DNA of 27,110 bases from a virus (taxonomy: Duplodnaviria; Heunggongvirae; Uroviricota; Caudoviricetes), in the IMG/VR virus record IMGVR_UViG_2579778745_000003, positions 1 through 27,110 of that record; one strand, written 5' to 3'. Position 1 is the first letter of the stretch, and every line of letters begins with the position of its first letter. This document shows positions 332-17,001 of the stretch, one piece after another. The notes beneath the pieces are model-generated. The model made no database searches. It was not told where the DNA came from and was given only the letters and a program-made list of their open reading frames with translations. The translations under genes and the position numbers were made by a program.

Positions 332-370
332 GCTGTAAGCCGCGCCATTTCTGGCCTGAAATGGGATCAA

Positions 371-477
371 CATTGACTATACGCGATTTTATGTTGACTG
401 TGCACGATTTATTGTTGACTGCACGCGATTTATTGTTGACTATACGCGACAGAAACATTGACTGTACGCGATTTTAG
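371..477 (+). repeat. Origin iterons (incC-like): five direct repeats of about 17 bp, core TTGACT(A/G)T(A/G)CGCGATTT
   Basis: TTGACT cores at 373, 394, 415, 436 and 458, i.e. 21-22 bp spacing (two helical turns), immediately upstream of repA. Confidence 0.85.
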
Positions 478-551
478 AGCCTGACTATTCACAGTTGTTG
501 ATAACTGCAATCCAGATGACGCCAGGCCGCGCCACATATGGAGAAACCACG

Positions 552-1436
552 ATGCCGGAAGAAAATAAAGGCTTCCTTAGCGTTGAAGAAGTTGCTGGAA
601 ATACAGGAGAAATCCACAGCCTGAAACCCAATAACAATAGCACTATACAACCCATCGCTTTGTTGCGCTTAGGTGTGTTTGTGCCAACCTTAAAATCTAC
701 CAATGTGGCACTACGTCGCGGATCGTCAGTTACTACAAACACAACGAACGCAACCGAAGAACTATCAAGCCTCAAAATTGTTGAGCAGGAAGGCTATGAG
801 GGAATTGAAATTCATGGTCCACGCCTGGATATGGATACTGATTTTAAGGTGTGGGTGGGCATAACCTCCGCGTTGTTTGACTACGCACCTGATGATGACG
901 GTATAATCACCCTGCCATTCTCCGAGTTTGCCGATCGATGCGGCTATCCACGTAAGCGCCTTTCAAAGGCGTTCCGTAAAAGTATTGATGATTCTCTGAC
1001 ACGCATTCAGCAGACAGTTGTCAAATTCCGCTTCCCGGCGGCAAAAGGTCATCTCAATAACATTAACGTCAACTTGTTGGCATATAGCAGCCTGAATACC
1101 GAGCTTGATGTTATCGAGATCCAGCCGCAGAAACAGCTATCTGAACTTTACTATGTTGACTATAAGCGAATCCTGAAGCTGAAGATGCTGGATAAGCTCG
1201 GGCGCAAAGAGACGGCCAAGGTACTGTATACATTCTTTGAGGCTCTACCCGCCAACCCGGCACCTGTCAGCATTGAGCGCCTTAGAGCAAGGCTTAATCT
1301 CAAATCATCCGTTAGCGTGCAAAATAGCGTTATCAGAAAAGCCATGAAAGATTTAGAAGCTATTGAATATCTTAAATTTTCAGAGATAAAAAACGGCAGG
1401 AAAATCGGCTTCCAGATCCATAAGCGCAATCCATAA
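552..1436 (+). CDS. repA: Iteron-binding replication initiator RepA (P1 RepA family, divergent). ORF track starts at TTG 495; I prefer ATG 552, which has a GGAGA 7 nt upstream
   Basis: Flanked on both sides by iteron arrays; the segment NNNSTIQPIALLRLGVFVP resembles what I recall of P1 RepA; gene order ori-repA-incA-parAB matches P1. Confidence 0.8.
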   Translation: MPEENKGFLSVEEVAGNTGEIHSLKPNNNSTIQPIALLRLGVFVPTLKSTNVALRRGSSVTTNTTNATEELSSLKIVEQEGYEGIEIHGPRLDMDTDFKVWVGITSALFDYAPDDDGIITLPFSEFADRCGYPRKRLSKAFRKSIDDSLTRIQQTVVKFRFPAAKGHLNNINVNLLAYSSLNTELDVIEIQPQKQLSELYYVDYKRILKLKMLDKLGRKETAKVLYTFFEALPANPAPVSIERLRARLNLKSSVSVQNSVIRKAMKDLEAIEYLKFSEIKNGRKIGFQIHKRNP

Positions 1437-1700
1437 TATTGACTATATGCGATAGCGAGAAGTTGACTATAGGCGACATTCATTGACGCTGGTGGATTTT
1501 TGCTGGAGTCAATATTCTGCAAGTCGCTATTGAGATGGCTTTTAGGGTCATTTCATCGCGTATAGTCAACGTTTCTCCCGACAATATCTTACATAGTCGA
1601 TCTTTGGTGGAGTTAAATCGACTACAGTCAACTTTTGACTGTAGTCACATCGCGCATAGTCAACTATTCACATTAACCTTCGCGCATAGTCAACATTTGC
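1437..1700. repeat. incA-like copy-control iteron array, about nine copies in mixed orientation
   Basis: TTGACT cores on + at 1439, 1463, 1483 and 1635; reverse-complement AGTCAA cores at 1507, 1564, 1626, 1658 and 1688; degenerate copies at 1605 and 1643; CGCGCATAGTCAAC repeated exactly at 1651 and 1681. Confidence 0.8.
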
Positions 1701-1728
1701 GCGGTTCTCATCAAGCAGTGGTATTGAT

Positions 1729-2538
1729 ATGCAAGAAGAGAAACAACACTACCTCTACGTTCTGGTGCCAGAGAACGGAGATACTTTTAAAATCGGCATT
1801 TCATGTGGTCCATTGGCACGGTTTAAAGGGCTACAAGTGAGTCCCGATTTTGCGCTTTCACGGGTCTATCGTGGTACACGTTTGGCAATGGTTAATCTTG
1901 AGCGGGCTTTACACGCAACCTTTTTCCCCTGGAATGCGCCGTGGGAGAAAAGCGTCGGTGGCGGGCATACTGAATGGTTTACACGAGAGTGTCTTGATAA
2001 GGTTTTGGCTCATATCGAATATCTAAATGATATGTGGGGAGGGATTCTCGAGCGCATTAAGTCGAATGATTTACTTCAGCGTCCAGTAGATGCTGCTTGC
2101 TCTTTCGAAAAAGAGCTGGATGTTACTTCTATCGTGACTTTCAAAGATGACGCAGGAATGAGGGACGTGGCTTATGTCTCCATATCTGGCTATGAACCGG
2201 ACGCGATCCGCGCTCAATGTGAATTGCTGAAAGCAATGTTTATGCTTCGGACTAAATATCCCTGGGATACAGGGCGGGTGTGCTTCCCTATGGAAGAGTT
2301 AACCGCCACCATTGATTCCCAGCTTTACCACGATAATCCAGAGAAGTTTTTTAGCCTTTTAGCCGGTAATGGGCTTAACTGTGTGTCCGGGCTGGGGCGA
2401 AGTAGAATCCAACATGCCTCGCTCTTCGGTCCCTTCTTTTACGATCGACACGGGTACTTTGAGGCTGAACTTCCGGCGCTTACGCGTGCTATAGATACTA
2501 TCGATTTCGAACGATTATTCGCTGCTCTTAGCAAATAA
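1729..2538 (+). CDS. Protein with an N-terminal T5orf172 / GIY-YIG-like domain (269 aa); C-terminal 170 aa unassigned
   Basis: N-terminus reads YLYVLVPENGDTFKIGIS...LERALHATF...GGGHTEWF, matching the T5orf172 motif pattern (YVY, KIG, ExxLH, EWF) as I recall it. Confidence 0.55.
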   Translation: MQEEKQHYLYVLVPENGDTFKIGISCGPLARFKGLQVSPDFALSRVYRGTRLAMVNLERALHATFFPWNAPWEKSVGGGHTEWFTRECLDKVLAHIEYLNDMWGGILERIKSNDLLQRPVDAACSFEKELDVTSIVTFKDDAGMRDVAYVSISGYEPDAIRAQCELLKAMFMLRTKYPWDTGRVCFPMEELTATIDSQLYHDNPEKFFSLLAGNGLNCVSGLGRSRIQHASLFGPFFYDRHGYFEAELPALTRAIDTIDFERLFAALSK

Positions 2539-2545
2539 CACTGAT

Positions 2546-2568
2546 GCCCCTGAACGGGGCTTTTTTGT
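2546..2568 (+). terminator. Rho-independent terminator (GCCCC-TGAAC-GGGGC followed by TTTTTT)
   Basis: GC stem-loop followed by a T6 tract directly after the stop at 2538. Confidence 0.65.
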
Positions 2569-2599
2569 GCCTTTCTTGTAACTCTCAATCGTGCAAAAT

Positions 2600-2700
2600 G
2601 AACCAAACATGCAGAGAATGCTATGTACAAGCATCTACGCATACATTATTATTTTATGCAGCATTTTTAATTAAATTCAAAAATACAGCATAAAGGATGA
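2600..2700 (+). promoter_or_regulatory. Putative par promoter/operator: AT-rich region with imperfect palindrome AATGCTATGTACAAGCAT (2617-2634) and flanking ATGCAG repeats
   Basis: Palindromes read upstream of parA; P1 ParA autoregulates through an inverted-repeat operator over its promoter. Confidence 0.4.
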
Positions 2701-2706
2701 CTTTCG

Positions 2707-3903
2707 ATGAGTGATTCCAGCCAGCTTCACAAGGTTGCTCAAAGAGCAAACAGAATGCTCAATGTTCTGACTGAACAAGTACAGTTGCAAAAGGATGAGC
2801 TACACGCGAACGAGTTTTACCAGGTCTATGCGAAAGCGGCACTGGCAAAATTGCCTCTACTGACTCGAGCGAACGTTGACTATGCCGTAAGTGAAATGGA
2901 AGAAAAGGGTTATGTTTTCGATAAACGCCCTGCTGGCTCTTCAATGAAATATGCGATGTCAATTCAGAACATCATTGACATATATGAACATCGCGGAGTG
3001 CCAAAATACCGGGATCGCTACAGCGAAGCGTATGTGATTTTCATCTCCAATCTTAAAGGCGGTGTGTCAAAAACTGTATCGACGGTTTCTCTGGCGCATG
3101 CAATGCGTGCCCACCCTCATCTTCTGATGGAAGATTTAAGGATTCTGGTTATTGACCTTGATCCGCAATCTTCAGCAACGATGTTTTTAAGCCATAAACA
3201 CTCTATTGGTATCGTAAACGCAACATCTGCACAGGCTATGTTGCAGAATGTAAGCCGTGAAGAGCTGTTAGAGGAGTTTATTGTTCCTTCTGTTGTACCT
3301 GGGGTTGACGTTATGCCTGCGTCGATTGACGATGCCTTTATTGCATCCGATTGGAGAGAGCTGTGCAATGAGCATCTACCGGGTCAGAACATCCATGCTG
3401 TCCTGAAAGAAAATGTGATTGATAAGCTGAAGAGCGATTATGACTTTATCCTCGTTGATAGTGGTCCTCACCTTGACGCCTTCCTGAAAAATGCTTTGGC
3501 CTCGGCCAATATACTGTTTACACCTCTGCCGCCAGCAACTGTCGATTTCCACTCATCGCTTAAATACGTTGCCCGCCTTCCTGAGTTGGTAAAACTCATT
3601 TCGGATGAAGGCTGCGAGTGCCAGCTTGCGACTAACATTGGTTTTATGTCCAAGTTGAGTAACAAGGCAGATCATAAGTATTGCCATAGCCTGGCTAAAG
3701 AAGTGTTCGGTGGGGATATGCTTGATGTCGTCCTCCCTCGCCTTGACGGTTTTGAACGCTGCGGCGAGTCTTTTGACACTGTTATTTCAGCTAACCCGGC
3801 AACGTATGTTGGTAGTGCTGATGCATTGAAGAACGCGCGAATTGCCGCGGAAGATTTTGCTAAAGCAGTTTTTGACCGTATTGAATTTATCAGATCTAAC
3901 TGA
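2707..3903 (+). CDS. parA: Partition ATPase ParA, type Ia (Walker-type with N-terminal HTH), 398 aa
   Basis: Deviant Walker A KGGVSKT; length and sequence match my memory of P1 ParA; AAGGA RBS; followed by parB and parS. Confidence 0.93.
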   Translation: MSDSSQLHKVAQRANRMLNVLTEQVQLQKDELHANEFYQVYAKAALAKLPLLTRANVDYAVSEMEEKGYVFDKRPAGSSMKYAMSIQNIIDIYEHRGVPKYRDRYSEAYVIFISNLKGGVSKTVSTVSLAHAMRAHPHLLMEDLRILVIDLDPQSSATMFLSHKHSIGIVNATSAQAMLQNVSREELLEEFIVPSVVPGVDVMPASIDDAFIASDWRELCNEHLPGQNIHAVLKENVIDKLKSDYDFILVDSGPHLDAFLKNALASANILFTPLPPATVDFHSSLKYVARLPELVKLISDEGCECQLATNIGFMSKLSNKADHKYCHSLAKEVFGGDMLDVVLPRLDGFERCGESFDTVISANPATYVGSADALKNARIAAEDFAKAVFDRIEFIRSN

Positions 3904-3919
3904 GGAGTAAGAAACCCCC

Positions 3920-4921
3920 ATGTCAAAGAAAAACAGACCAACAATTGGGCGAACCCTTAATCCTTCAATATTAAGCGGATTTGATAGTTCTTCAGCCTCT
4001 GGCGATCGAGTCGAGCAGGTATTCAAGTTATCAACTGGTCGCCAGGCCACATTTATTGAAGAGGTAATACCTCCGAACCAGGTAGAAAGCGATACCTTTG
4101 TTGATCAGCATAACAACGGGCGTGACCAGGCATCTCTTACGCCAAAATCATTAAAAAGTATCCGAAGCACTATTAAGCATCAGCAATTTTACCCTGCAAT
4201 AGGTGTTAGACGGGCTACAGGGAAAATTGAAATTTTGGATGGTTCCCGGCGTCGAGCTTCTGCCATCTTAGAGAACGTAGGGTTGCGGGTTTTAGTCACG
4301 GACCAGGAGATCAGCGTTCAGGAAGCGCAAAATTTAGCGAAAGACGTTCAGACAGCATTGCAGCACAGCATTCGAGAAATAGGTCTGCGTTTGATGCGAA
4401 TGAAAAATGATGGGATGAGTCAGAAGGATATTGCAGCCAAAGAAGGGCTGTCTCAGGCGAAGGTCACGCGTGCTCTCCAGGCAGCGAGTGCTCCGGAAGA
4501 ATTAGTCGCCCTTTTCCCTGTTCAGTCGGAATTAACCTTTTCGGACTACAAAACGCTTTGTGCTGTTGGCGACGAAATGGGGAACAAGAATTTAGAGTTT
4601 GATCAGCTTATTCAAAACATATCCCCGGAAATAAACGACATCTTATCCATTGAAGAAATGGCCGAAGATGAAGTTAAAAATAAAATCCTGCGCTTGATAA
4701 CAAAGGAAGCCTCACTACTCACGGATAAAGGTTCTAAAGATAAGTCCGTAGTTACTGAATTATGGAAATTTGAGGACAAGGATCGCTTTGCAAGGAAGCG
4801 CGTGAAAGGCCGTGCATTTTCTTATGAGTTTAATCGACTTTCAAAAGAGCTACAGGAAGAACTCGACAGGATGATTGGGCATATCCTTAGAAAGAGCCTC
4901 GATAAAAAGCCGAAGCCTTAA
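3920..4921 (+). CDS. parB: Centromere-binding protein ParB, 333 aa
   Basis: Length and sequence match my memory of P1 ParB; position between parA and parS. Confidence 0.93.
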   Translation: MSKKNRPTIGRTLNPSILSGFDSSSASGDRVEQVFKLSTGRQATFIEEVIPPNQVESDTFVDQHNNGRDQASLTPKSLKSIRSTIKHQQFYPAIGVRRATGKIEILDGSRRRASAILENVGLRVLVTDQEISVQEAQNLAKDVQTALQHSIREIGLRLMRMKNDGMSQKDIAAKEGLSQAKVTRALQAASAPEELVALFPVQSELTFSDYKTLCAVGDEMGNKNLEFDQLIQNISPEINDILSIEEMAEDEVKNKILRLITKEASLLTDKGSKDKSVVTELWKFEDKDRFARKRVKGRAFSYEFNRLSKELQEELDRMIGHILRKSLDKKPKP

Positions 4922-4925
4922 ACTT

Positions 4926-5008
4926 TCGCCATTCAAATTTCACTATTAACCAACTGTTTTTAAAGTAAATCTATCTAAAATTTCAAGGTGAAATCGCCAC
5001 GATTTCAC
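4926..5008. promoter_or_regulatory. parS: parS centromere: box B TCGCCA (4926, 4994), box A ATTTCAC (4937, 5002; inverted at 4988) flanking an AT-rich IHF-like core
   Basis: Hexamer and heptamer motifs read directly in the P1 parS arrangement B-A-[IHF]-A(inv)-B-A. Confidence 0.8.
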
Positions 5009-9956: not shown

Positions 9957-10466
9957 ATGGGGCACAATAACACTAAGGGAAACCGTAAATTTATTAAGGG
10001 CCGCTATACTGCCAACGCGGCCAAAGGCGAACGACTGGTATCTTCTGAATTCCAGCTCACTTTTGCAGGCCATGAAGATATCAGCGTACTGGTTCGCACG
10101 TCGCAAATTCCTGAAATGACCCGCGAGGATGTGGAGGACTATGGTCCGAATGGTGTGAAGTTCAACCAGCACGGACCAATTCGAAACTCTGGGGAAATCC
10201 AGGTCCAGTGCGTGGAGACTATCGAAGGCGATATTCTTCAGTTCATCAAGGATCGCATTGCGGCGAAGGACTATGTTGATATCACGATGGCTGCTACCCC
10301 TGAATCCAAATCTTCCGGGGTTAACGCTGTGACAAAAGCTGCTACAACAATTGAAATGTTGGACTGCAAAATCTACAGTGATGCAATCGACTTTAGTACC
10401 GAAGATGTGACTGCCGCTGTGCGCCCGTCACTTCGTATCGTCTACAACTGGATTGAGTGGGATTAA
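9957..10466 (+). CDS. Virion structural protein, possibly tail-tube-like, 169 aa
   Basis: ORF with AAAGGA RBS; last gene before a strong terminator. Confidence 0.5.
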   Translation: MGHNNTKGNRKFIKGRYTANAAKGERLVSSEFQLTFAGHEDISVLVRTSQIPEMTREDVEDYGPNGVKFNQHGPIRNSGEIQVQCVETIEGDILQFIKDRIAAKDYVDITMAATPESKSSGVNAVTKAATTIEMLDCKIYSDAIDFSTEDVTAAVRPSLRIVYNWIEWD

Positions 10467-10485
10467 GAGTCATCCCTTGTATTTT

Positions 10486-10512
10486 AAAGCTCCTTCGGGA
10501 GCTTTTTTATTT
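10486..10512 (+). terminator. Rho-independent terminator (AAAGCTCC-TTCG-GGAGCTTT followed by TTTTTTATTT)
   Basis: Perfect stem with a tetraloop and a T-tract directly after the stop at 10466. Confidence 0.8.
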
Positions 10513-10582
10513 GGAGAGGAAAGGGTGCATTGAGGATACCTGACACACGAAGAGTGGCGAGGATCTCTCCCCGCCAGGTCTC

Positions 10583-10738
10583 TTACCTTTCAGATTCGTA
10601 GGCTGTGAAGACAGTGACCTCCGTCTGGCCGGTTCGGATTCGTACCTCGCAGAGGTCTTTCCTCGTTACCAGTGCCGTCACAATGACGGTTAAACAGATG
10701 ACGATCAGAGCGATTAACATCGCTTTTTGCTGCTTCAT
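10583..10738 (-). CDS. hok: Hok/Gef-family type I toxin, 51 aa: MKQQKAMLIALIVICLTVIVTALVTRKDLCEVRIRTGQTEVTVFTAYESER
   Basis: Hand translation of the - strand; single TM helix followed by the conserved RKxLCExR...EVxxFxAYE pattern of Hok proteins; not in the ORF track because it is under 60 aa. Confidence 0.85.
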   Translation of the reverse strand: MKQQKAMLIALIVICLTVIVTALVTRKDLCEVRIRTGQTEVTVFTAYESER

Positions 10739-10796
10739 AGCCTGCTTCTCCTTGACCTTTTGGTCGGTAAGAGGCTAATCTACGTATGCTAAGCAT
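10590..10796 (-). CDS. mok: mok-like overlapping reading frame (68 aa) that would couple translation into hok
   Basis: ORF in another frame that starts upstream of hok and overlaps almost all of it, as in R1 hok/mok/sok. Confidence 0.45.
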   Translation of the reverse strand: MLSIRRLASYRPKGQGEAGYEAAKSDVNRSDRHLFNRHCDGTGNEERPLRGTNPNRPDGGHCLHSLRI

Positions 10797-10850
10797 AGAT
10801 ATGGCCTCAGATTAATGTTAAGCGTCTTGCAGGACGCGTAATGTTATCTG
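10780..10850 (+). ncRNA. sok: Putative Sok-like antisense RNA; boundaries approximate
   Basis: Antisense to the mok start and hok leader; TTGACC at 10752 as a possible -35; palindrome TATGCTAAGCATA (10785-10797); hairpin GCGTC-TTGCAG-GACGC (10831-10846). Confidence 0.3.
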
Positions 10851-10919
10851 GGGCTTTCTTCTATCTGCTTTTCGGGTAATGCCTGAAGCAGATAGCCTCA
10901 AGCACCCGCAACGATTGTA

Positions 10920-11165
10920 TCAATGTCTGGCTTTTTTTCTATAGAAATCACCTGGAAGGGTGAATATCCACATCAGAAGAAATGTTGCAGCAAACATGAT
11001 CCCTAATGGCCAGACCGCGCCAAAGAAAATCCATACTAAGATCTCCTCTGCTCGTTCTTTGCGGTCGATATCGACAAGCATTTTTCGGCTGATCATGTAT
11101 ACACAGAAGCCAATACAAACATATCCTGCAAAAGCGATCGCTAACTGTAAAAGATCAGATTGCAT
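10920..11165 (-). CDS. Small membrane protein with two predicted TM helices, 81 aa from ATG 11165 (ORF track starts at 11246, inside repL)
   Basis: Two hydrophobic stretches; GAGG RBS upstream of the internal ATG; sits between repL and hok. Confidence 0.45.
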   Translation of the reverse strand: MQSDLLQLAIAFAGYVCIGFCVYMISRKMLVDIDRKERAEEILVWIFFGAVWPLGIMFAATFLLMWIFTLPGDFYRKKARH

Positions 11166-11215
11166 CTCCGACCTCAAACTGAAAACGCCAGGTGACTCCA
11201 GATTAGAGCAATCTA

Positions 11216-12061
11216 TCACCCTCTGAATCCTGCCGGTATACCCCATTGTTCGTTATCTTTATTTTTGGCTAAAACCGCATTAAGAGCTTCGTTTACCGTC
11301 ATGCAATGCGGCAGATTATCGAAGTTTGATATCCCGCCAATATCAGGAGAACGCTTGTCCTTCAGGTAAGCATATTTCCGCGCTGCCGCCTCTACTTTCT
11401 GCTTGAACTCATGTTTTTGAGCGCGTTTTTTGGATAACCGCAGATTGTCAGCCTTTGCTTTTGCCTCAGCGATCCATGAAGTCAATTTTTTGAGTCTGGT
11501 CGTTCCGGCACCGCCGGAAACTGATCTTTTTATTTTTTTAACTTGTGACTTCTTATTCTTTATTGCCACGTCATCCTGACAGGGGGAGGGGGTATCATTT
11601 TGACATGGGGGTGTGGATAAAAAATTAAATAAAGCCAATGTCTTAGCGAGAACAGCTTTAACCTTGGTTGCCGCTGAAGAGATCTTTAATTTGCTTTCAA
11701 TCAGCGCATTTTTGGCTTGTTGTGCGAAGGCCAAAAAGGATGGTGTAAACCGGTACAGGTTAGCGCGACGTTCACGGTGATCGCCGATAACAATCTCTAC
11801 AGACAGAATTCCTTTGTTTACAGCTTCACGGAATGCACGAACGACGGTTGATTGGCTATAACCAGTTTCTGCCGCGATCAGGCGGTGAGGCTTGTGAATG
11901 AAGTATTCACTAGTTGTTGCCGCGAGATTTGCACATTGCGACAGGATATGCCCGGCGCTACGGGATAGACCGGAGTGTGTTACAAAGCAGGCCAATTCAT
12001 AGCCAGAAAAAGTAAAATCGCTCATCGTTATACAGCTCAGGAAAGTGACTTTAGCCAGCAT
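11216..12061 (-). CDS. repL: L-replicon (lytic) replication protein RepL candidate, 281 aa
   Basis: Directly downstream of kilA on the same strand, as in the P1 kilA-repL operon; the 281-aa length matches my recollection of P1 RepL. Confidence 0.6.
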   Translation of the reverse strand: MLAKVTFLSCITMSDFTFSGYELACFVTHSGLSRSAGHILSQCANLAATTSEYFIHKPHRLIAAETGYSQSTVVRAFREAVNKGILSVEIVIGDHRERRANLYRFTPSFLAFAQQAKNALIESKLKISSAATKVKAVLAKTLALFNFLSTPPCQNDTPSPCQDDVAIKNKKSQVKKIKRSVSGGAGTTRLKKLTSWIAEAKAKADNLRLSKKRAQKHEFKQKVEAAARKYAYLKDKRSPDIGGISNFDNLPHCMTVNEALNAVLAKNKDNEQWGIPAGFRG

Positions 12062-12960: not shown

Positions 12961-12977
12961 AAATTTATTAGAGCAAA
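12961..12977 (-). promoter_or_regulatory. C1 repressor operator Op53-like: TTTGCTCTAATAAATTT on the - strand, 16 of 17 matches to ATTGCTCTAATAAATTT
   Basis: 17-mer read directly, about 70 bp upstream of kilA; the C1 operator consensus is from memory. Confidence 0.75.
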
Positions 12978-14349: not shown

Positions 14350-14560
14350 CTACCCGCTGCTAAACAGGTGGCAGGACGTGACGGGGTTAGCAGACTGGCG
14401 ATTGTGAAACCAGCAGGCCGAAGCCTCCCCATCACGCCCCACCATAATTTGGGCGTAACGCGGTTTTACGGACACAAAAATACCGCAATATCGGATATCT
14501 GCGGCTGTCCGCACAATCATTCAGGCTGCTAAACCCGGTCGCAGAATTTGCTACGACGGC
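14350..14560 (-). ncRNA. c4: c4-type antisense RNA and its target region; exact ends not resolved
   Basis: Between Op51 and icd; GCTGCTAAAC occurs twice on + (14356, 14527) with its complement GTTAGCAG at 14387, as expected for antisense/target elements. Confidence 0.4.
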
Positions 14561-14630
14561 GGAACTATAAGCCTGAACGATTAAAAGGTCAATATGATGC
14601 GAAAAGATAGCATTCGTGACTTAAAAATAC

Positions 14631-14647
14631 AAATTTATTAGAGCATT
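14631..14647 (-). promoter_or_regulatory. C1 repressor operator Op51-like: AATGCTCTAATAAATTT on the - strand, 16 of 17 matches
   Basis: 17-mer read directly at the head of the c4-icd-ant unit. Confidence 0.75.
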
Positions 14648-14743: not shown

Positions 14744-15235
14744 ATGAGAAAACTATTACTACCGTTATTATTTATGGCTGGGACTGTTAATGCAGCATCA
14801 AGCGTAAAGGAGATTTGTACCGATTATACGAAATACCTTGGGCACGTTTACGGATTTGCTGTCAGTGAAGACGAATCCATGCGCAAGAAGTTACTGTCAG
14901 ATATGAAGCGCCTTAAACTTTCTGAAGCGATGGTGCAGCAGGAACTGTATAAAGTCTCAACCAACGCAAATGCTAAATACCAATATTCTCGCCTATTAAA
15001 CCCCGATGCAAATGAGATCAATCGAAGCACTTTCGATTATATGGTAAAGGCATGCGAAACCGCTCCTGATTTTGCTATCCCTAGCTGGGGTGTGCTGGTG
15101 GCGAGCAATGCCGTTAATAAAGAAGATGTTGGAAGAAATGGCATTGACTCAATCAGAAATGCCCCAGGAATGCGCCATCAAAACGTGCAGGGTACGCTTG
15201 AAGAACGAGCCAGGGGGCCGGGTGTAGCTCCATAA
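14744..15235 (+). CDS. Secreted protein of unknown function, 163 aa from ATG 14744 (ORF track start 14717); C-terminus carries a motif shared with Sit
   Basis: Signal peptide MRKLLLPLLFMAGTVNA-AS; GAGG RBS 6 nt upstream of 14744; AT-rich codon usage. Confidence 0.7.
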   Translation: MRKLLLPLLFMAGTVNAASSVKEICTDYTKYLGHVYGFAVSEDESMRKKLLSDMKRLKLSEAMVQQELYKVSTNANAKYQYSRLLNPDANEINRSTFDYMVKACETAPDFAIPSWGVLVASNAVNKEDVGRNGIDSIRNAPGMRHQNVQGTLEERARGPGVAP

Positions 15236-15323
15236 TTTAATGAATAATATTAAATTCTCTGGGCATAGTGGATCTAACAATATGGACTATGCCTATAATA
15301 TCTAAAACAAAAAGGATAAAAAT

Positions 15324-15830
15324 ATGAAATTATATAAGTCATTGTATAGCTTTTTATTAATGTCCTCTTTTCTGCCATTATCAGCAATGGCAGGTTCTAC
15401 CGTTTGGACGGTAGGAGGTGAGCAAGGGTGGAGAGAAATCTCTGCAACCAATGACGATGGTTATACAATTAACTTTTCTTGTGATGCTGGAGCAAGGGAA
15501 GGTTCCGAAGATCATATAGCTGGAAGAAATTTGTATGTAAGTGGAGGGAAAGAGAATGCTGATTTTTCTACACGCGACACAATTTCTCGTAAAGCTGATG
15601 TAATTACCTTAATTGTTGGTCCGGATAGCTTTAATATTGGTACGCAAAACACTGCTCCAAATCGTAGGGAATGGTATTCTTTTTGGAAGTCAGCGTCAGC
15701 CACAAAAGAAAAAAACATGGATGTATATATCGGATCGCGTCGAATTACATCATTCTCTCTTGATGGAATTTCAAGTATTTACAAGGAAGCTAAAAATGAT
15801 GGATGTTTAAAGCAAGATGACGGTGAATAA
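15324..15830 (+). CDS. Secreted protein with two Cys, unknown function, 168 aa
   Basis: Signal peptide MKLYKSLYSFLLMSSFLPLSAMA-GS; AAGGA RBS. Confidence 0.7.
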   Translation: MKLYKSLYSFLLMSSFLPLSAMAGSTVWTVGGEQGWREISATNDDGYTINFSCDAGAREGSEDHIAGRNLYVSGGKENADFSTRDTISRKADVITLIVGPDSFNIGTQNTAPNRREWYSFWKSASATKEKNMDVYIGSRRITSFSLDGISSIYKEAKNDGCLKQDDGE

Positions 15831-17001
15831 AGTGAAGGATATTAAAAAACTTGCACTTGGCTCAGTAAGCGATCTCTATAATAGAGATTCAAATATTACC
15901 TGGCGTGATAATTTAAGTAAAATCAAAATCGCAGGATATACATCGGCAAGTGATTTATTAAAATCAGAATATGCTTCTAATAATTTGGTTAGACAGTTGG
16001 CAGAACTGCAAAAAAACGCAATCATTCCATCGTATAGAGAACATATGGCAAACTTGCAAGAACAGTTAAGAATAGGGCGGCTAGCTCAAGAACAAATAGC
16101 AAGATTGAATTTGCAATCGTTACTTAGTGATTCTGTTAAAAAACAGCTTGCGAACATGACGAGCTTGAGAAGAATAAATAGCAAGCATCGTGAATTTCTT
16201 GAAATTCTACAGAAACAGGCCAAGGTTTATCCCCCGCATGATGCAAATAAATACATTCAAATGCTAAGGAAGCAGGCAGAAATTGCTATGCCGTTACGAA
16301 ACCAGTTCGAGATGCTTAATAAGCAAGCTGGTTTAAATAACATGCAAGCAATACTTAATGAATTGCGACAAAATGTAAGTCATAAGATAGATTTAAACAA
16401 TGAAATAAAAGAATCATTAAAACAATATACCCTAGCGCAAAAGGCTTCATTACATCAAATAATGGAGCAAAGTCTTTCATCAATTGCACAGGCTTATGTC
16501 GAAGGTGCTATTGAAACATCTCACAACGAAAGTGATGTTCAAGACAAAGGATTAAATAAATCCAGTTCGACGTTCATTGATTCATTTAAGTCGCTCCCTC
16601 ACCCGCTTCAGTTTATTATTATGTGGCTTTTAACAGAAGTGGTGCTTGGCGCTATTGCTGATTATGCAAAAGAACAAATCTTATCGCAAATACACAAGAC
16701 AGAATCATATTCTGTATCCCTATATGAGGATGCACCAATATCAAAACAAAAATTAATTAAAGAAAACACAGAAATTAAGTGGGAAGATCTCAATGGTTTT
16801 AGGTTTATAACTGGTGATAACGTAAGATTACATGTCAGTCCTTCTTTAAATAGTGAAGTGATTGAATGCATTGGCAAAAACACAATTGTTGCTATTTTAG
16901 ATAAGAAAGATCGTCAATGGCTTTACGTGCAGGTTAAATCAGGGGATGAGTTTATTACTGGTTGGATTACACGAACATACACAAAGCCTCTTAAGGCTTG
17001 A
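15817..17001 (+). CDS. Coiled-coil protein with one hydrophobic segment and a C-terminal bacterial SH3 (SH3b)-like domain, 394 aa
   Basis: Repeated LxKQA heptad-like segments; hydrophobic LQFIIMWLLTEVVLGAIA; C-terminus ...GWITRTY resembles SH3b; overlaps the previous gene by 14 nt. Confidence 0.65.
   Translation: MTVNKVKDIKKLALGSVSDLYNRDSNITWRDNLSKIKIAGYTSASDLLKSEYASNNLVRQLAELQKNAIIPSYREHMANLQEQLRIGRLAQEQIARLNLQSLLSDSVKKQLANMTSLRRINSKHREFLEILQKQAKVYPPHDANKYIQMLRKQAEIAMPLRNQFEMLNKQAGLNNMQAILNELRQNVSHKIDLNNEIKESLKQYTLAQKASLHQIMEQSLSSIAQAYVEGAIETSHNESDVQDKGLNKSSSTFIDSFKSLPHPLQFIIMWLLTEVVLGAIADYAKEQILSQIHKTESYSVSLYEDAPISKQKLIKENTEIKWEDLNGFRFITGDNVRLHVSPSLNSEVIECIGKNTIVAILDKKDRQWLYVQVKSGDEFITGWITRTYTKPLKA

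Follow-up and report, generated by a model that had tools for sequence, protein, structure and literature searches.

Does the slot between the late genes and the L-replicon of a P1-like phage-plasmid hold a complete type I toxin-antitoxin system and, if so, what would such a system do for a replicon type whose addiction module is phd-doc? The window analysed here, the whole stretch of 27,110 nucleotides from the IMG/VR record IMGVR_UViG_2579778745_000003, belongs to a P1-like (Punavirus) phage-plasmid in which the bplB, repL, kilA and immI region is syntenic with P1. An earlier reading of the letters, referred to below as the original prediction, had placed a hok/mok/sok cassette between the late genes and the L-replicon, and the flanking genes agree with this position, with the tail gene bplB on one side and repL on the other (Table 1). 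Judged from sequence and predicted structure, the slot holds a complete hok/mok/sok type I toxin-antitoxin cassette of ~430 bp, extending from the hok promoter to the fbi element. This assignment is supported by the Hok profile, the covariance model of the leader, the mok offset, the pairing of tac with fbi and the mapping of Sok from sokW.

Genomic setting of the cassette

In a blastn comparison with P1 (NC_005856), homology stops at 10508 and is back at 11202. The left breakpoint lies directly after the terminator hairpin of bplB and the right breakpoint within the C1 operator Orlf, and the 1.8 kb that carry pmgF-rlfB-rlfA in P1 are replaced by 693 bp. The rlfA-rlfB-pmgF region is one of eight hypervariable regions in P1-like phage-plasmids (PMC9603915). 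That P1 itself lacks hok at this position and uses phd-doc had been part of the original prediction and is correct: the reference P1 has pmgF-rlfB-rlfA, and phd-doc is present in its complete genome. A hok locus elsewhere in canonical P1 was ruled out by a search of the whole genome, which gave no Rfam sok match and a best tblastn E-value of 2.4 for Hok.

Base composition gives no clear island signature. Since homology to other phage hok loci spans only 10523-10919, it was a minimal cassette that was acquired. The neighbouring 81-aa ORF matches phrog_3772 (function unknown) over the whole profile, at residues 28-108 of a 108-aa ORF, and has no significant Pfam match; PGAP gives it 81 aa in pE2-2, a near-identical plasmid. 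It is preceded by a Shine-Dalgarno sequence (SD; GAGG, 11175-11172), its stop codon directly adjoins the -10 box of hok, and in other phages it is not adjacent to hok.

Relative to P1, only half of Orlf (ATTGCTCTAAT) survives at the right breakpoint (11196-11212, minus strand). Full matches to the C1 operator, with one mismatch each, are found upstream of kilA (12961-12977) and upstream of c4 (14631-14647). The C4 antisense RNA of the immI region (14364-14449, minus strand; Rfam, 69.6 bits) and its a1/b1 target (14518-14570, minus strand; 55.5 bits) are intact. Two further stretches, 355-4977 and 14883-17103, have no match to P1 (OP279344) by megablast; the former matches pE2-2, where it encodes a RepB-family initiator, a GIY-YIG nuclease and ParA/ParB. 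Both fall in regions known to vary, the plasmid replicon/partition region and the sim region, and the element is therefore probably a non-IncY (p0111-type) P1-like plasmid.

Table 1. Features in and around the bplB-repL slot, in window coordinates; nt, position in the hok mRNA
Feature	Coordinates	Strand	Basis and remarks
bplB (tail gene)	9957-10466	+	
Segment in place of pmgF-rlfB-rlfA	10509-11201	-	blastn breakpoints against NC_005856; holds hok/sok and the 81-aa ORF
Full-length hok mRNA, ~399 nt, predicted	10509-10907	-	Fold; hokW homology spans 10523-10919
fbi, CCUCAAUGCACCC (nt 373-385)	10523-10535	-	Pairs with tac nt 1-12; 92% identical to 933W
3' stem-loop, GGCGGGGAGAGAUCCUCGCC (nt 333-352)	10556-10575	-	MFE fold; contains the IS186B target GGATCTCTCC
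hok, 51-aa membrane toxin	10583-10738 (stop included)	-	Pfam PF01848; 92% identity to HokW
mok, 68 codons	10590-10796	-	Overlaps hok out of frame; AUG 58 nt upstream of hok AUG
hok SD, GGAG (nt 157-160)	10748-10751	-	Block CAAGGAGAAG.AGGC.ATGAA conserved in all three loci
Sok promoter, inferred	10752-10781	+	-35 TTGACC (10752-10757); -10 GCTAAT (10774-10779) or TAATCT (10776-10781)
Sok RNA, 71 nt, predicted	10788-10858	+	Exact column mapping from annotated sokW (933W)
mok SD, GAGG (nt 100-103)	10805-10808	-	Invariant in three-way alignment; sequestered in full-length fold
ucb/anti-SD, AAGCCCC (nt 52-58)	10850-10856	-	MFE partners; Rfam consensus tac/ucb stem
5' stem-loop, CUAUCUGCUU...AAGCAGAUAG (nt 13-47)	10861-10895	-	Repeat search; Rfam consensus helix
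tac, GGGUGCUUGAGG (nt 1-12)	10896-10907	-	100% identical to 933W, 83% to R1-type locus; pairs with fbi
hok promoter, putative	10914-10941	-	Consensus scan; -35 TAGAAA (10941-10936), 16-nt spacer, extended -10 TG-n-TACAAT (10919-10914)
81-aa ORF	10920-11165	-	Two hydrophobic segments; neighbour in the replaced segment, outside the toxin-antitoxin system
repL	11216-12061	-	

The Hok toxin and the mok reading frame

The 51-aa product reads MKQQKAMLIALIVICLTVIVTALVTRKDLCEVRIRTGQTEVTVFTAYESER and had been predicted to show the classic Hok layout, which the ORF list, hydropathy and profile searches confirm. A single hydrophobic segment (residues 6-24, mean Kyte-Doolittle value 3.07) is followed by a polar tail (-0.77), and C15 and C30 are equivalent to C16 and C31 of R1 Hok, as judged by inspection of the offset between both sequences. 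The search with Hok/Gef models that had been proposed as a check gave a match to Pfam HOK_GEF (PF01848) at 78.7 bits (E = 2.4e-22; cut-off, 22 bits) over profile positions 1-42 of 42, and PHROG 251, 'MokW-like host killing', matches with E = 4.9e-32. These E-values rule out a chance ORF. Two NCBIfam models score below their curated cut-offs, NF007279 (Hok subfamily PRK09738) at 49.5 bits against 73 and NF007290 (HokA equivalog) at 38.1 bits against 89; as both are narrower subfamily models, membership in the Hok/Gef family is unaffected. The protein is 100% identical to the PGAP-annotated hokD product WP_001313475 of pE2-2.

The hok AUG lies at nt 170 of the mRNA and the mok AUG at nt 112, where it aligns with the start codons of mokW and of the R1-type mok; the mok SD is located 8 nt upstream of the mok start. 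In R1, mok starts at 116 and hok at 174, i.e., with the same 58-nt offset (PMC9841398). The overlapping 68-aa frame had been assigned to mok by its position, and both the ORF list and this R1-like offset agree. The Mok product has no match in Pfam or NCBIfam, which is expected, as it is the translation of mok that matters rather than its product (PMC9841398).

Relative to 933W, a single base is inserted at 10756 (the T of GGTCAAGG, minus strand). The insertion moves mok from in frame with hok (57 nt) to out of frame (58 nt, R1-like) and, on the other strand, changes the Sok -35 box from TTGCCT to TTGACC and lengthens the spacer of the Sok promoter by one base. The in-frame, 57-nt version is also carried by an IncFII locus encoding the R1 Hok protein, and the frame relation between mok and hok therefore varies within the family.

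Anatomy and folding of the hok mRNA

The element upstream of hok is a promoter by its sequence, and presumably acts as one; its -10 box aligns with TAGAAT in 933W and TATGAT in the R1-type locus. The mRNA is numbered from position 1 of the Rfam model (10907), and its 3' end is placed by analogy with R1, where the full-length RNA stops just past fbi. The Rfam family RF01794 ('sok') matches 10733-10907 on the minus strand at 114.9 bits (E = 8.5e-26; cut-off, 59 bits), over model positions 1-157 of 157. This is the hok-sense strand, as it is in 933W (1713-1887 of the locus record L002). Because the family scores on the hokW/mokW strand of 933W, while sokW is annotated on the opposite strand, RF01794 is a model of the hok mRNA leader. 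The consensus of this model contains the tac/ucb stem of the processed RNA, a stem that is satisfied here.

All the hok mRNA elements defined in R1 (PMC9841398) are present, namely tac, ucb, the mok SD, mok, the 3' hairpin and fbi. By definition, the partner of ucb is the mok SD in the closed form and tac in the open one, and in R1 the counterpart of the 3' hairpin ends and protects the truncated hok mRNA (PMC9841398). The 5' stem-loop is built on the 10-bp inverted repeat CTATCTGCTT / AAGCAGATAG (10861-10870 / 10886-10895), the core of a 21-nt imperfect repeat (10850-10870 / 10886-10906). This repeat had been proposed to form the 5' hairpin of the hok mRNA; it exists and fits the 5' stem-loop of the Rfam model, but the coordinates first given, 10870-10904, are ~9 nt off.

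The minimum free energy (MFE) fold of the 399-nt RNA has -154.7 kcal/mol (z = -8.76), with none of 100 shuffled sequences as stable. In this fold, all twelve nucleotides of tac are paired with fbi and ucb pairs with the mok SD, which corresponds to the closed form. Compared with the R1-type locus, two of the tac/fbi pairs are changed on both sides with pairing kept: U4-A382 and G3-C383 of the present RNA correspond to G4-C388 and C3-G389 there. For 3'-truncated RNAs (350-365 nt), the MFE structure is the metastable tac hairpin, and the open tac/ucb form lies 2.6 kcal/mol higher. The cost of forcing the tac/ucb stem, +2.6 kcal/mol, is bracketed by those of the functional controls (933W, +1.7; R1-type locus, +3.2), and because both of these fail alike to give the open form as MFE, the failure probably reflects the limits of MFE prediction rather than a defective locus. 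In a three-way alignment, the blocks that are conserved even in the R1-type locus are exactly the functional ones.

The predicted Sok antisense RNA

The original prediction had Sok on the plus strand, opposite the leader, where promoter-like and hairpin elements had been noticed, and the mapping of sokW agrees. The sokW transcript is an experimentally detected antisense RNA (PMC8621323). The predicted Sok consists of a 15-nt single-stranded 5' tail, which covers the mok start, followed by a long terminator hairpin; its complement includes both the SD and the start codon of mok. A slightly extended stretch of this RNA folds at -30.6 kcal/mol (z = -4.7). The promoter-like elements emerge from alignment with TTGCGC-17-TATCCT of the R1-type locus and TTGCCT-17-TAACCT of 933W, whereas a scan with a generic sigma-70 consensus found the hok promoter and not that of Sok. 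The target of the Sok 5' tail, only 65% identical to 933W, is the most divergent part of the leader; this suggests a Sok specificity separate from that of 933W and makes cross-neutralisation doubtful.

Relation to known systems

The closest relative is hokW-mokW-sokW of the Stx2 phage 933W and the Sakai prophage Sp5, with 86.5-87.6% DNA identity over 10523-10919. HokW likewise has 51 aa and Sok 71 nt in both, and tac, the hok SD and AUG, nearly all of fbi and the sokT hairpin are identical in 933W and the window. Both cassettes reside on temperate phages, 933W being an integrated lambdoid prophage and the present element a plasmid prophage. They differ in the offset between mok and hok (57 nt in 933W; 58 nt and out of frame here) and in the Sok -35 box.

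The family prototype, hok/sok (parB) of R1, shares the gene order, the RNA elements and a convergent Sok, and its mok AUG precedes the hok AUG by the same 58 nt (PMC9841398). R1 and the present element are both low-copy plasmid replicons, and the pairing of the mRNA ends is kept through compensatory changes. However, R1 Hok is only ~42% identical to the Hok described here, the present leader is shorter, and DNA identity is confined to the functional blocks. For R1, the comparison was with an R1-type IncFII locus, not with R1 itself; this locus codes for the R1 Hok protein and has mok in frame with hok.

In P1-like plasmids, a 51-aa protein identical to this one bears the label 'type I toxin-antitoxin system toxin HokD', after hokD (relF) of Escherichia coli, a name that is only a label. 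The hokD locus of K-12 is not known to have the regulatory mok/sok part upstream; the copy in the window is complete. The addiction module of the same replicon type, phd-doc, with Doc encoded in pE2-2 and P1, is a type II system that works by protein-protein interaction and has a translation-inhibiting kinase as toxin; it shares neither sequence nor mechanism with hok/sok and has another location on the genome.

Prevalence and alleles of the slot

A query spanning the junctions (10400-11300) is covered to at least 80% in 262 PLSDB plasmids, where PGAP annotates hokD, and in six phage records, one of which is annotated MokW. A P1-type bplB is found in ~680 PLSDB plasmids. The hok-bearing allele (262 of the ~680) is the commonest bplB-repL allele among sequenced P1-like phage-plasmids, next to a canonical P1 allele in 99 plasmids and a hok-less allele in 125. 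The cassette in this slot is thus already known, through the hokD and MokW annotations in hundreds of public P1-like records. A 2019 paper noted '2 orfs including antibacterial toxin' in the slot, and the literature holds a general mention of toxin-antitoxin modules of types I and II on a P1-like plasmid; a literature search for P1-like elements or phage-plasmids together with hok found no dedicated study of hok/sok function.

The hok-less allele, seen in phage 673R5 (1480-2420 of L005) and RCS47 (2231-2404 of L004), corresponds to 10773-10941 of the window. It keeps the hok promoter, the leader and the Sok region with a Sok-type promoter, TTGCTC-16-GCTAAT, and has lost the Hok coding sequence. 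The two leaders match the full RF01794 model at 89.7 bits (673R5) and 68.5 bits (RCS47). After the AUG in the hok position follows a non-hydrophobic 53-aa ORF, antisense to a plus-strand gene of 171 or 198 aa; these 171/198-aa ORFs, which replace hok in 673R5 and RCS47, have no significant Pfam match. The orphan Sok of this allele could be an anti-addiction element directed against hok-bearing P1-like plasmids.

The 10-bp sequence GGATCTCTCC occurs once in the window (0.03 occurrences expected by chance), at 10561-10570, which is within the 3' hairpin of hok, 13-22 nt downstream of the stop codon. It is the target duplication of IS186B in the P1-like plasmid pSvP1 (PMC6906374). As this sequence lies in the hok 3' hairpin, the IS186B of pSvP1 sits between hok and fbi. 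IS186 and IS150 interrupt chromosomal hok loci of E. coli K-12 at the same place.

Proposed function and alternative roles

The locus itself provides features of sequence and structure, and a mechanism can be proposed for it on the model of R1 and hokW. From a weak constitutive promoter, a stable hok mRNA of ~400 nt would be made that, with its 5' tac and 3' fbi paired and the mok SD masked by ucb, would not be translated. Slow trimming of the 3' end to the hairpin at nt 333-352 would allow tac to pair with ucb and free the mok SD, and ribosomes translating mok would then open the start site of hok. As long as the element is kept, the short-lived Sok, made from a strong convergent promoter, would pair with the trimmed mRNA over the mok SD and AUG, and the duplex would be destroyed by RNase III. 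Upon loss of the plasmid prophage, Sok would decay first, Hok would be made, and its single transmembrane helix would damage the inner membrane, so that the segregant dies. Through such killing of segregants, the cassette would act as a second addiction module next to phd-doc.

We give a probability of about 0.8 to the reading that the cassette is an intact, working toxin-antitoxin system, an R1-type post-segregational killer adding to phd-doc, and a second addiction module alongside phd-doc is its most likely role. HokW is toxic and is neutralised by sokW (PMC8621323), and pE2-2 carries both hokD and doc. The 262 intact copies say little about purifying selection, as they are at least 99% identical. 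A low-copy plasmid with par, cre/lox and phd-doc may, however, gain little from another killer, and hokW-sokW, the closest studied relative, has been connected with lysis after induction and not with maintenance (PMC8621323).

A functional locus whose main role is lytic is the alternative to be taken most seriously, although we regard it as unlikely: induction would lead to loss of Sok, and Hok would weaken the inner membrane, with earlier lysis and more release. The cassette is 87% identical in DNA and its Hok 92% identical to hokW-sokW, the deletion of which halved the release of Sp5 progeny and delayed growth arrest by ~40 min (PMC8621323). Moreover, hok is co-directional with and lies just downstream of the C1-repressed kilA-repL operon, with its C1 operator at 12961-12977. 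As only a weak terminator-like site (10963-10948) intervenes between this operon and hok, read-through after induction could run against the convergent Sok promoter. That the cassette is wired to the lytic switch in this way, with read-through depleting Sok and freeing Hok as an early lysis aid, is a more speculative proposal, to which we give little credence; if true, read-through would also provide a mechanism, so far missing, by which sokW RNA is lost on induction, as reported for Sp5. On the other hand, P1 has its own holin, antiholin and endolysin (lydA/B/C, lyz), and canonical P1 lyses normally without hok. The lytic role is carried over to P1-like elements by analogy, and the read-through is purely conjectural.

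Exclusion of other phages through abortive infection, in which shut-off of host transcription by the incoming phage would deplete Sok and release Hok, is improbable as the main role. Defence cargo is frequent in the variable slots of temperate elements, and R1 hok/sok on a high-copy plasmid lowered the plating efficiency of T4 by 42% and its plaque size by ~85%, according to the summary given in PMC8621323. This effect is small and depended on a high copy number, and P1-like plasmids are present at roughly one copy; beyond hok/sok there is nothing defence-like at the locus, the 81-aa ORF having no known family. It is slightly less probable still that the cassette is a relic without activity that is passively carried along, as are most hok loci of the E. 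coli K-12 chromosome. The slot does decay in relatives, with 125 plasmids keeping the hok leader and sok after loss of the Hok coding sequence and an IS186B in the hok 3' hairpin of pSvP1 (PMC6906374). In the window, by contrast, the ORFs are uninterrupted, the RNA folds like the functional controls, and the key blocks share 92-100% identity with the functional locus of hokW. With all its elements intact, this copy is unlikely to be a relic.

Implications

As hok/sok is a textbook system, the value of this locus as a discovery is small. It does illustrate two weaknesses of automated annotation: type I toxins systematically escape ORF tracks whose cut-off is 60 aa, and an annotation derived from RF01794 ('sok antitoxin') would put Sok on the wrong strand. 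P1-like phage-plasmids, which often carry resistance genes, may persist better with a second addiction module.
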